Shown: positions 1,497 to 10,678, counted from the stretch's first letter. The stretch is DNA of 64,000 bases from Escherichia coli (GCF_044647545.1 NZ_CP172818.1), one strand, 5' to 3'. Notes: generated from the sequence alone by a model not told the origin. Translations and numbers: made by a program.

Positions 1497-1712
1497 TTAC
1501 TCTCCTCTCGCAGCCTTACGCCTGTCTTCTTTAATCTTGAAATAAAGATTTGTCAGGTACGTCAGCAGGCCAAATACCAGGCTACCCAGCACACCTATTG
1601 CTGCCCACTGTGAGGGCGTGACTTTATCGAGCAGCTGTAAAAACCAGTAGCCAGCACTGCCTGCGGAGGTGCCGTAGGCAATGCCTGTTGAAATTTTGTC
1701 CATGGATTTCAT
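1497..1712 (-). CDS. essQ: Phage 21 S-like pinholin (class II holin) with dual-start motif
   Basis: 71 aa from MKSMDK...; MKSM dual-start (holin/antiholin) motif, two hydrophobic segments, charged C-terminus; near-identical to S21 as recalled. Six-frame ORF extends upstream to 1790 but start at 1712 fits. Confidence 0.8.
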
Positions 1713-1932
1713 AGCCTCACCTCCGCACGGAACGGATGGTGCAATATGTTTGAAAAGATCGGAGTCTACGGGGTAGTTTTGACAGCACACGTTGTTCTCA
1801 ACGGCGCTAAAAAAACATACACATTAAAAATGTGGGTAATTATTTTGAAAGAAAGTCATATATAAAATAATAATACGAGAAATGTTTTCATATTTAGTGT
1901 ACTGTATACGGCCATTTATACAGGAAAAGCCT

Positions 1933-2103
1933 ATGTCAGAACGTAAAAACTCAAAATCACGCCGTAATTATCTCGTTAAATGTTCCTGCCCAAACTGCAC
2001 CCAAGAGTCAGAACACAGTTTTTCAAGAGTACAAAAAGGTGCCCTTTTGATCTGCCCTCATTGCAACAAAGTATTCCAGACAAATCTTAAAGCTGTAGCC
2101 TGA
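1933..2103 (+). CDS. Small zinc-ribbon protein (CxxC...CxxC), 56 aa; possibly the Qin small protein YnfU
   Basis: ORF 1882-2103 with internal start MSERKN; CPNC and CPHC motifs; length matches a 56-aa K-12 Qin small protein as recalled (uncertain). Confidence 0.45.
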   Translation: MSERKNSKSRRNYLVKCSCPNCTQESEHSFSRVQKGALLICPHCNKVFQTNLKAVA

Positions 2104-2163
2104 TTGATTTTATTAGTAACAAGTATTTTTTATATTTTAATAATATATTTAAAGCAGATAATA

Positions 2164-2188
2164 AAAAACCCGCCTGAGCGGGTTTGAG
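2164..2188. terminator. Bidirectional rho-independent terminator (strong on minus strand, downstream of cspB)
   Basis: A6-CCCGC-ctga-GCGGG-TTT hairpin; on minus strand followed by T-run. Confidence 0.6.
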
Positions 2189-2466
2189 ATTGTGGTGCTT
2201 TTTGTGGGAGTCATCCACTTACGCACTTTGTTTTGCCATGCCAGCAGTTAGCTTCTGCTGTAAAACTATTCATGCAGCAAACCTGCACTTCACCACAATG
2301 GTTAGCATACTTTTCCTGATTAAGATTTTGCCAAATATGCTAGCCATTGTTTCATGTATTGGACCTCCTTACTTTTTATTAAAGAGATCCAATATTCACT
2401 ACTCTGTCCGTATCTCTACTCAGGCATCAGCCTTCTTCGTTATCGTATACAGACGAGCGATGAATT

Positions 2467-2682
2467 TTAATCAGTAATGATGACATTTGCTGCTGCAGGA
2501 CCTTTAGCACCACTCTCTATAGAGAAGGTAACCTTTTGACCTTCAAATAAGGTTCGATAATTATCATTCTGAATCGCAGAAAAATGCACAAACACATCTT
2601 TACTACCATCAACAGGAGAAATAAAGCCGAAACCTTTATCAGCGTTAAACCATTTTACTAAACCAGTCATTTTATTTGACAT
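2467..2682 (-). CDS. cspB: Cold shock protein CspB (prophage-encoded CspA paralog)
   Basis: 71 aa; [15 protein letters not shown]1 and VFVHF RNP2 motifs; divergent with cspF. Confidence 0.95.
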
Positions 2683-2982
2683 TCTACATTCCTTAACTTG
2701 AGCCTTTCGGCATAAATGGTTTGCATAACAGAAACGACTTCGTACTTAATTGGAGAGACTCAAAGAAGGAATAAGTGAATAACACCTGAAATGAGAACTG
2801 CTTTAGTAAACTACTTCGTATATCGTCTGTTCTTCAAACCGACGCAATCATTAACGCATAGTTGAACATATGAAGCAATGTTTATTTTAGACATCCAGCC
2901 ATCTTCAACCCCATCAAAAAACTATAGCTTTCTTCAGGAACGTGTGTATAGTGCGCCAAGTTATCAGTATTAAGGAATTTTT

Positions 2983-3195
2983 TTGTCCCGTAAAATGACA
3001 GGAATTGTCAAAACCTTTGACGGCAAAAGCGGCAAGGGTCTTATCACCCCATCCGATGGTCGTATCGATGTCCAGCTTCATGTTTCAGCGCTCAATCTCC
3101 GCGATGCAGAAGAAATTACCACCGGATTACGCGTGGAATTTTGCCGGATAAATGGTCTGCGTGGCCCTTCAGCTGCCAATGTTTACCTTTCATGA
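2983..3195 (+). CDS. cspF: Cold shock protein-like CspF
   Basis: 70 aa CspA-family fold with degenerate RNP motifs; divergent partner of cspB. Confidence 0.9.
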
Positions 3196-3487
3196 GCTAT
3201 ATTAAAGCTTTAATTTCAGGCCCCATCGGATCACACATGGAGAGTTTTTATGAATAACCCCGTCTGTCTTGATGACTGGTTGATTGGCTTTAAAAGCTTA
3301 TGCTGTACTTTGGCCGTAATAGCTCTGCTAATAATATAATAAGCAGACTCATTGTGTTTAGGGACATTGTACTGGAAGAAAACATTTTAAACATCAGGCA
3401 AATAACCAAGTCACCAGCTAAATAATAAGTTAACAGACATGAGTCCCGGGATGAGATTCAACATTACCATTGCCCCATTTAAAGCAC

Positions 3488-3516
3488 AAAACCCGCTCAT
3501 CAGCGGGTTTTCTACT
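3488..3516. terminator. Bidirectional rho-independent terminator between cspF and quuQ
   Basis: AAAA-CCCGCT-catc-AGCGGG-TTTTCT hairpin with A-run upstream and T-run downstream. Confidence 0.65.
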
Positions 3517-3616
3517 TTTTCTTAACGTCGGGTATACAAAGCCCATCGTTAGGAGAATCCTAACCAAATTTTTTGAAAAATGCAAGAATCATGTCGCCAT
3601 CTTCGGCGAAAATCAT

Positions 3617-4369
3617 TTATCTCGTCACTTTTCTTAATTGCGCCTCAGCATATGCTTCTTCCTGCCAGCACTTTGTCACCAGTTTATCAATGACATCTGC
3701 ATATCCTTTGTACCACTGATAATCCGTCAGGTCTGGTACCAGCTTCTGGACATGATGCCGCGCCAGTGTGGTTGGTAAACGGCTAAACCGATTTCCATTG
3801 CAACGCCCACAAATCTTATAAACAGGCGTGCCATGAAGCCGGGTCCTTTTTTCATCCAGGACAATACCTTTACCCTTACACCCTCTGCACGCTGTGCTGA
3901 CTTCTCCCTTACCATGACAATGCTGACATAGTTCCTTCACCCACTCTTCCTTGATAACAGATTCCCCGCTTCTGGAGTGTTTCACCACTTCGCGCAATAC
4001 ATTATGAAATCCAGTACCAGCACAATGCTCACAGCGAGCCTTACTTGCCGCAGACCTGGAATAATCAGCAAAGGCAAAATTCACAAGGTAAGGGATGATC
4101 TGTAACCGGGTTTCTTCACTCAATTTGTTCAATGTCGGGTTATCCAGTGCCATCGCGTAATTGAGCAGACCTTCAATCGCAAATTGAGGATCCTGAACAC
4201 CAACTTTTGCCAGGAATAAGGCAAACCCAAGCGGTGCTTTCGACTGCACCATCCCCTGCGCAGCCATCACATCCGTAATCGTTAAACCACCTGAGCCTGT
4301 CGCCGGTGCGTCATCGCTCAATTTTGGAGATTTTGGGGAGTAATATTTTGGTAAGGCTTCAAGGTTCAT
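3617..4369 (-). CDS. quuQ: Lambdoid late-gene antiterminator Q
   Basis: 250 aa; Cys-rich zinc-finger region (CQHCHGKG...CRGCKGKG, CGRCNGNRF) typical of Q proteins; upstream of lysis cassette on same strand. Confidence 0.85.
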   Translation of the reverse strand: MNLEALPKYYSPKSPKLSDDAPATGSGGLTITDVMAAQGMVQSKAPLGFALFLAKVGVQDPQFAIEGLLNYAMALDNPTLNKLSEETRLQIIPYLVNFAFADYSRSAASKARCEHCAGTGFHNVLREVVKHSRSGESVIKEEWVKELCQHCHGKGEVSTACRGCKGKGIVLDEKRTRLHGTPVYKICGRCNGNRFSRLPTTLARHHVQKLVPDLTDYQWYKGYADVIDKLVTKCWQEEAYAEAQLRKVTR

Positions 4370-10621: not shown

Positions 10622-10678
10622 TTTCTGGTGACGTTTGGCGGTATCAGTTTTACTCCGTGACTGCTCTGCCGCCCTTTT
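10622..10678 (+). ncRNA. dicF: DicF small regulatory RNA (ftsZ-targeting antisense sRNA)
   Basis: Sequence TTTCTGGTGACGTTTGGCGGTATCAGTTTTACTCCGTGACTGCTCTGCCGCCCTTTTT matches DicF as recalled, ending in hairpin plus T-run; exact processed ends not determinable. Confidence 0.85.

Follow-up and report, generated by a model that had tools for sequence, protein, structure and literature searches.

ynfU, a known small gene in an Escherichia coli prophage, encodes a predicted zinc-ribbon protein and is commonly found beside cold-shock-domain genes

The window analysed here, a single stretch of 64,000 nucleotides of Escherichia coli DNA, contains a short open reading frame at positions 1933..2103 of the plus strand, which runs from an ATG at 1933 to a TGA at 2103 and comprises 56 codons. 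The translated product of 56 amino acids, MSERKNSKSRRNYLVKCSCPNCTQESEHSFSRVQKGALLICPHCNKVFQTNLKAVA, contains two CxxC pairs of the CPxC type, C19-P-N-C22 and C41-P-H-C44, and a fifth cysteine at position 17. The reading frame lies in a gap of 754 bp, with a GC content of 37.5%, that separates essD (1497..1712, minus strand) from cspB (2467..2682, minus strand), and besides ynfU nothing is annotated by RefSeq in this gap in K-12. An earlier note on this DNA had described a 56-residue reading frame with two CxxC pairs at 1933-2103, which was exact, and had placed it between the lysis cassette and cspB in an otherwise non-coding region, in agreement with the RefSeq annotation. The features of the locus are as follows.

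1497..1712, minus strand: essD, the holin gene and first gene of the lysis cassette (followed by ydfR, rrrQ and rzpQ), which forms the left border
1845..1874, plus strand: alternative sigma-70-like match, TTGAAA-18-AATAAT, with 10 of 12 consensus positions
1897..1905, plus strand: GTGTACTGT, candidate -10 region, the window copy of a conserved GTG-TATGGT block
1922..1925, plus strand: Shine-Dalgarno sequence AGGA, the most conserved upstream block in 68 loci from many genera
1933..2103, plus strand: ynfU coding sequence, supported by 100% identity to K-12, the Pfam and NCBIfam models, a dN/dS of about 0.1 and the core of the AlphaFold2 (AF2) model
2166..2185, both strands: GC-rich hairpin CCCGC-CTGA-GCGGG flanked by an A-run and a T-run, from a terminator scan on the minus strand and folding on the plus strand
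2451..2843, minus strand: cspB coding sequence (2467..2682) with a cspA-type thermoregulator 5'UTR (Rfam RF01766), convergent to ynfU
2983..3195, plus strand: cspF, the third gene of the ynfU> cspB< cspF> cassette, from its reading frame and annotation
3617..4369, minus strand: quuQ/ydfT, the Q-type antiterminator gene, which forms the right border

Comparison with K-12 revealed a translation 100% identical to that of YnfU (b4776, WP_211180497.1), and the gene order within the Qin prophage of K-12 MG1655, essD / ynfU / cspB / cspF / ydfT (Q), is the same. Judged by its offset from cspB, the K-12 gene would occupy approximately 1,640,805-1,640,975 of U00096.3. The Pfam model PF23499 'YnfU' was matched over positions 1-49 of 49 with an E-value of 3.5e-31 and a score of 107.3 bits, compared to a cut-off of 27, and the NCBIfam model NF038384 'YnfU family zinc-binding protein' gave 79.4 bits compared to a cut-off of 36. 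The model scores, the two CPxC knuckles with their four cysteines and the orthology with K-12 place the protein in the YnfU family, and the identity of the reading frame as ynfU (b4776) is virtually certain. The named K-12 small protein with which the reading frame had tentatively been equated is therefore the K-12 YnfU, identical in sequence and encoded at the same position. A megablast search with window positions 1700-2500 found this region in 3024 of 5426 complete E. coli genomes, with at least 80% of the query present in 1622 of the 3024. The RefSeq label of the reading frame in K-12 and in more than 1600 other genomes is 'ynfU: putative zinc-binding protein YnfU', and the gene is already known from RefSeq, Pfam, NCBIfam and the small-protein literature.

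The DNA between 1732 and 2500 is identical to that of K-12, while ten differences are packed into positions 1704-1731 and the proteins encoded on either side have identities to their K-12 counterparts of 92% (EssD), 90% (RzpQ), 94% (QuuQ) and 99% (RrrQ). The contrast between the identical segment and the divergent EssD, RzpQ and QuuQ, together with the cluster at 1704-1731, indicates that the ynfU cassette sits in a mosaic Qin-like prophage which is not the K-12 copy. The cold-shock cassette (ynfU-cspB) and its flanks (157-1712 and 3617-4369) appear to have different histories. The antisense sRNA DicF (RF00039, 76.7 bits), which is expected in a Qin-type prophage, was found at 10623-10674 on the plus strand. 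The spacer between ynfU and cspB, equivalent to window positions 2186-2466, is broken by IS1 or IS200C in several other E. coli genomes, and a low-frequency intergenic ynfU/cspB polymorphism has been reported in one silver-nanoparticle evolution line; this spacer seems to be tolerant of insertions.

The strongly conserved AGGA at 1922-1925 lies 7 nt ahead of the ATG at 1933 and serves this start. A longer version of 73 amino acids, which begins at an ATG at 1882 in a mechanical list of reading frames, was rejected. The ATG at 1882 is not preceded by a Shine-Dalgarno sequence, an in-frame stop lies no more than 14 codons from the conserved ATG in 23 of 64 distinct homologous upstream regions, the conservation upstream is not codon-like, and the homologues and RefSeq begin at the conserved ATG. 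The first 49 codons of ynfU are open in all 67 of 67 related loci, among which the median pairwise dN/dS was 0.10, and comparisons with the window gave dN/dS values of 0.045-0.135 for pairs with unsaturated dS. Residues C19, C22, C41 and C44 show no variation among 61 distinct homologues obtained from the loci, nor in an alignment of 48 members that includes distant relatives down to 30% identity, so that homologues with conserved cysteines, one of the two checks proposed in the earlier note, were found. Little or no variation was seen at residues S26, E27, H28, S29, R32, K35, P42 and F48. Purifying selection on the gene is strong.

Translation of ynfU, the second proposed check, is supported by published work. 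The gene was found by Ribo-RET, the ribosome profiling of retapamulin-stalled initiation complexes, and YnfU with a chromosomal SPA tag, made from its native locus, was detected by western blotting, readily at 37 °C in stationary phase, as the most abundant among the newly identified small proteins (Weaver et al., bioRxiv 10.1101/511675). In the independent Ribo-seq benchmark RiboReport ynfU was fully covered and displayed a TIS peak, and the gene was recovered genetically by PIRT-seq (PMC12350097). All three translation studies concern the K-12 gene, which is identical to that of the window. The short length of ynfU and its position in a low-GC intergenic region would be consistent with a chance reading frame in AT-rich spacer DNA that is not a functional gene, but the dN/dS of about 0.1, the intact frame in 67 loci, the invariant cysteines and the three independent published lines of translation evidence leave this explanation with a negligible probability.

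The structure of YnfU was predicted using AlphaFold2. A first, shallow alignment gave a pLDDT of 64, and an alignment of 48 sequences gave a pLDDT of 74.8 overall and 81-86 over residues 11-50. The first half of the model contains a strand at residues 14-18, the C19/C22 knuckle, a strand at 25-29 and a short helix at 30-35, and the second half contains a strand at 38-40, the C41/C44 knuckle and a strand at 47-49. This arrangement of two β-hairpins with a CxxC knuckle at each turn is that of a C4 zinc ribbon. The tails are disordered in the model and the N-terminal tail is basic, as is the protein as a whole, which contains 10 K/R and 3 D/E residues and has a net charge of +7 and a pI of 9.6. 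YnfU is very probably a zinc ribbon of classical C4 geometry, and the predicted site should hold one Zn2+, which would be structural, through C19, C22, C41 and C44. The zinc-ribbon assignment made earlier from the sequence is supported by the four invariant cysteines, the AF2 ribbon core and the matches to the YnfU zinc-binding family.

In zinc ribbons a lone Zn(Cys)4 site usually plays a structural part, which argues against YnfU being a zinc buffer or metallochaperone, engaged in metal handling rather than in the binding of macromolecules. Such a role is suggested by the database name 'putative zinc-binding protein' and by SProtFP, which cites YnfU as a possible metal-binding small protein. 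However, no conserved palindromic operator was found upstream of ynfU in 68 loci, the window contained no match to a Zur-box-like pattern, and the neighbours of ynfU are not metal-homeostasis genes, making a function in zinc handling highly improbable.

Searches of the PDB with two YnfU models using Foldseek gave nothing significant, with a best E-value of 0.17, and returned generic small zinc ribbons, of which the top matches were archaeal ribosome-bound HVO_2753-like small zinc fingers (E ~0.17-0.2, TM 0.43-0.49). Profile searches against PDB sequences gave marginal matches to eL42/L44e (E=0.0018, residues 14-31 of YnfU, first knuckle only), to Tim15/Zim17 (E=0.029, then 0.0034 with a deeper profile, both knuckles) and to PA0128/PhnA (E=0.58-1.6). 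No significant or annotated match was obtained from PHROGs, where the best E-value was 0.0023 to families of unknown function, and the PADLOC defence models gave 0 families at E<=1.

Three families were considered for YnfU and rejected. The N-terminal zinc ribbon of PhnA/YjdM (PF08274; PA0128, PDB id. 2akl) is, like YnfU, a C4 zinc ribbon and gives the best non-self Pfam match to YnfU (E=1.3e-4), the same match as that of Weaver et al. (bioRxiv 10.1101/511675), who described CPXC zinc knuckles, two in number, in YnfU and obtained a threading match of moderate quality to PA0128; however, the score of 22.4 bits is below the cut-off of 30.8 and the C-terminal domain of PhnA is absent from YnfU. 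The eL42/L44e proteins and the HVO_2753-like protein of the 30S subunit are basic zinc ribbons of similar size to YnfU, but the matches are not significant: the eL42/L44e match covers residues 14-31 only, with an E-value of 0.73 for NCBIfam PRK05767, and proteins of the HVO_2753 type contain four CxxC motifs where YnfU contains two plus C17. The DNL-type zinc finger (Tim15/Zim17/Hep1, PDB id. 2e2z) has a pattern, C-x2-C-x3-S-x-H-...-KG-x-LI-CPHC, that aligns with YnfU across both knuckles. The DNL proteins are, however, eukaryotic organellar proteins, the zf-DNL model (PF05180) gave 13.5 bits compared to a cut-off of 27, and the segment after the second knuckle, which in these proteins carries the functionally essential DNL motif, is variable and not conserved in YnfU. 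As the other Pfam models fell below their cut-offs and the DNL-motif region is the least conserved, YnfU is classified no further than 'YnfU family, C4 zinc ribbon'.

Protein-protein contacts are often made by zinc ribbons, and YnfU could be a protein-binding ribbon that docks on and modulates a larger host partner (for instance an enzyme, a chaperone or RNA polymerase), which is how the majority of characterised small proteins of bacteria work, in which case its adjacency to csp genes, described below, would be hitch-hiking. The sole profile match over both knuckles, at E=0.0034, is to Tim15/Zim17, an Hsp70 escort zinc finger, and most small proteins are expected to bind larger proteins (Weaver et al., bioRxiv 10.1101/511675). 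Set against this, the Tim15 match is marginal by its zf-DNL score, conservation in YnfU is lowest in the region corresponding to the DNL motif, and the strongly positive net charge and the conserved basic residues are a better fit to nucleic acid. Protein binding is consequently a rather unlikely, if appreciable, alternative.

When 1.84 billion representative proteins were searched exhaustively with an HMM, only 42 clusters were found at E<=0.001, and a word-indexed search gave 49 proteins, all of them unnamed or named YnfU family. A scan of one genome per species revealed 62 ynfU loci, a few of which are short MAG contigs with implausible labels, in the genera Escherichia, Citrobacter, Klebsiella, Raoultella, Enterobacter, Kosakonia, Leclercia, Lelliottia, Kluyvera, Atlantibacter, Phytobacter, Silvania, Yokenella, Superficieibacter, Franconibacter and Pluralibacter. 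The YnfU family is narrow and essentially confined to the Enterobacteriaceae. The gene is also carried by the inducible phages PhiR42_1, 2H10, Tritos, HannyBb and PhiR63_1, and the YnfU encoded by PhiR42_1 is identical to that of the window. In inducible phages such as PhiR42_1 the gene likewise lies between Q and the holin gene. In one database protein, P0057 (186 aa), a read-through of the cspB leader and N-terminus (...VKWFNADK) is joined directly to YnfU residues 17-56; this is probably an assembly or rearrangement artefact rather than a natural fusion of YnfU to a cold-shock domain (CSD).

The region upstream of ynfU consists of an A-rich stretch, a spacing of ~18-19 nt, the GTG-TATGGT block, a further ~17 nt, the AGGA and 7 nt leading to the ATG. 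The GTG-TATGGT block keeps a constant spacing to the ATG in loci with unrelated outer flanks, and is a candidate promoter -10 region, which would give a leader of ~25 nt. The alternative sigma-70-like match at 1845..1874 is preferred by a consensus scan, but it is not conserved outside Escherichia among 68 upstream loci and its use is therefore uncertain. Rfam gave no RNA family and no thermoregulator on ynfU or its leader. The hairpin at 2166..2185 starts 63 nt past the ynfU stop codon and is a predicted bidirectional terminator that can serve both of the convergent genes, ynfU and cspB. Downstream of the cspB stop codon at 2467 there is no convincing intrinsic terminator before this hairpin (2185-2166), implying a 3' region of ~280 nt. 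A second hairpin, ACCCGCT-catc-AGCGGGT with an A-run and a T-run at its sides, lies at ~3489-3520 in the gap between cspF and Q, and is another predicted bidirectional terminator, which could act for cspF on one strand and as a tR'-like site for the late promoter on the other. A hydrophobic reading frame of 29 amino acids is present at 3250-3339 on the plus strand, just 3' of cspF, and is annotated in K-12 by RefSeq as the hypothetical protein WP_120795389.1.

The GC content is 35-40% over positions 1650-3600, which contain ynfU, cspB and cspF, compared to 46-55% in the lysis and Q/ydfU genes. The conserved promoter-like block and Shine-Dalgarno sequence, the predicted terminator hairpin and the low-GC island are features that would fit a moron. 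On this basis ynfU would be transcribed on its own, using its own promoter-like block, Shine-Dalgarno sequence and hairpin terminator, and ynfU, cspB and cspF would together form an inserted low-GC cassette, bordered by the Q antiterminator gene and the holin gene. Lambdoid-phage morons at the Q/lysis slot, for example stx in Stx phages, share with ynfU this slot, the possession of promoter-like and terminator signals of their own, a deviant GC content and expression from a resident prophage, and these properties make it likely that ynfU is a moron-type independent unit. Unlike such morons, ynfU is opposed to the late operon and is elsewhere, in other genera, an ordinary chromosomal gene. Transcription of the late operon runs leftwards, with Q ahead of the holin gene, so that ynfU is antisense to this operon and would gain no boost from Q read-through.

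Some phage zinc-finger proteins, such as Ogr of P2, are transcription factors, and YnfU might likewise be a prophage regulator, as hinted in the earlier note: a small zinc-finger protein that controls transcription or lysis of the Qin late genes, immunity or superinfection. In each of the viral contigs examined, all of the E. coli type, the gene lies between Q and the holin gene, and its transcription against the late operon could hinder leaky late transcription. Qin-like lysis or Q genes are, however, nearby in only ~6 of the 62 species-level loci, the copies in Enterobacter, Klebsiella and Lelliottia, and Pantoea-type copies, lie among ordinary chromosomal genes, and the PADLOC and PHROGs searches gave no match and nothing significant or annotated, respectively. 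Since most homologues in other genera lie outside Qin-type lysis regions, a prophage-specific regulatory role is unsupported, and this alternative is very unlikely.

The surroundings of ynfU were compared in 61 complete species-level loci of 8 kb each, and clustering of the outer flanks gave 26 unrelated contexts. At least one CSD gene was found 36-553 bp from ynfU in 45 of the 61 loci, and the adjacency is present in 21 of the 26 distinct flank contexts. Ten arrangements were observed, the commonest being U> B< F> (17 loci), U> B< (7), U> F> (7) and A< U> B< (4). As an internal control, the same 8-kb loci contained one CSD hit at more than 1.1 kb from ynfU, compared to ~70 that were nearer. 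In all of the 80 viral contigs ynfU is followed, within the interval from Q to the holin gene, by a CSD gene of convergent orientation, although these contigs are all near-identical E. coli-type copies (at least 88% identity) and add little diversity. The Rfam cspA thermoregulator is present on the neighbouring csp gene in 15 of the 17 loci that were sampled, indicating that the CSD neighbour is of the cold-inducible type; the same applies to cspB of the window, where RF01766 matches over the 5'UTR and coding sequence with 158.8 bits (E=1.7e-41).

The cassette is found in a variety of settings. In the phage PHB10 the ynfU> csp< cspF> triple recurs, here close to int/umuDC. On the Klebsiella chromosome a cspF-like gene comes after ynfU>, and in Salmonella a divergent csp gene lies upstream of ynfU. 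Lelliottia has the order ynaE> ynfU> csp< at a non-prophage site between the liv transporter genes and pgsA/uvrC (loci L011-L013). The YnaE-family gene of Lelliottia (PF27475, 4507-4740) is on the same strand as ynfU and directly upstream of it. The YnaE and YdfK proteins of E. coli are described as cold-shock-induced. A CSD neighbour was absent in 16 of the 61 loci, for example in Enterobacter copies that lie beside tautomerase and GST genes, and in all 4 of the 4 distant family members examined. Some of the Enterobacter loci without a CSD gene (L002-L005, 6299-8862) contain a gene for an ArsR-type HTH protein and an EF-G paralogue downstream of ynfU, and other such strains contain a PAAR-domain cluster at the same spot, indicating that the region beside ynfU is variable.

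A shared operon of ynfU with the CSD gene was considered and rejected, as in E. coli the two genes converge on an intervening hairpin and the same-strand pair of Klebsiella is split by a terminator hairpin. Because the ynfU and csp genes are convergent, divergent or separated by a terminator, their adjacency could reflect the co-transfer of a tight cassette among related genera rather than a shared function, and because the genera are closely related the signal is partly one of shared cassette ancestry. No mention of the adjacency was found in the published literature, and this almost constant association of ynfU with csp genes is the only new point of the analysis. It provides a concrete hypothesis, cheap to test, on the role of a comparatively abundant small protein.

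The literature found on YnfU comprises discovery and benchmarking studies, incidental annotations and a polymorphism report only, in which its function is not addressed. The best overall explanation, with a probability of about 0.8, is that ynfU is a real, translated, stand-alone gene of the moron type that encodes a 56-residue zinc-ribbon protein, to which a role linked to RNA and cold shock is assigned as a guess. The conserved surface of YnfU is basic, with residues R4, K5, R11, K16, R32 and K35, and includes the invariant SEHS(F) hairpin. This basic surface and the adjacency to CSD genes in many unrelated contexts lead to the tentative suggestion that YnfU may be a small zinc-ribbon accessory that binds RNA or the ribosome and belongs to the same cold and RNA-structure physiology as its CSD neighbours. 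The SEHS(F) hairpin and the conserved basic residues would then form the interaction surface, and YnfU would act in the physiology of RNA structure and translation at low temperature, as do the CSD RNA chaperones, rather than act as a prophage regulator. The ready detection of the protein at 37 °C in stationary phase implies that YnfU is not strictly cold-dependent, and the generic zinc-ribbon resemblance, which is all that the structure and profile searches gave, argues against an RNA or cold-shock role.

Lin28 and the plant cold-shock-domain proteins combine a CSD with a small zinc module for RNA binding. By analogy with these, YnfU might be a dedicated partner of CSD proteins, with RNA or the ribosome as its target and with its CspB/CspF/CspA-like neighbours acting jointly with it or in the same pathway, although such a dedicated partnership is unlikely. 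The likeness is a functional analogy only, with no homology claimed, and in the case of YnfU it concerns adjacent genes (45 of 61 species loci). Lin28 and the plant proteins are single polypeptides with CCHC retroviral-type knuckles, whereas YnfU is a separate C4 ribbon encoded by a separate transcription unit. If YnfU were a dedicated CSD partner, the pair would represent a two-gene bacterial counterpart of the CSD-plus-zinc-knuckle architecture, and a unit that is mobile between enterobacterial chromosomes and lambdoid prophages.

Several RNA elements were also observed near the ynfU cassettes of relatives. These were a FourU RNA thermometer (locus L051, 2717-2781), the SraC/RyeA-SdsR/RyeB pair (L065, 5538-5682), STnc100 (L009, 3820-4021, and L030, 3740-3869) and isrI (L015, 3303-3399).
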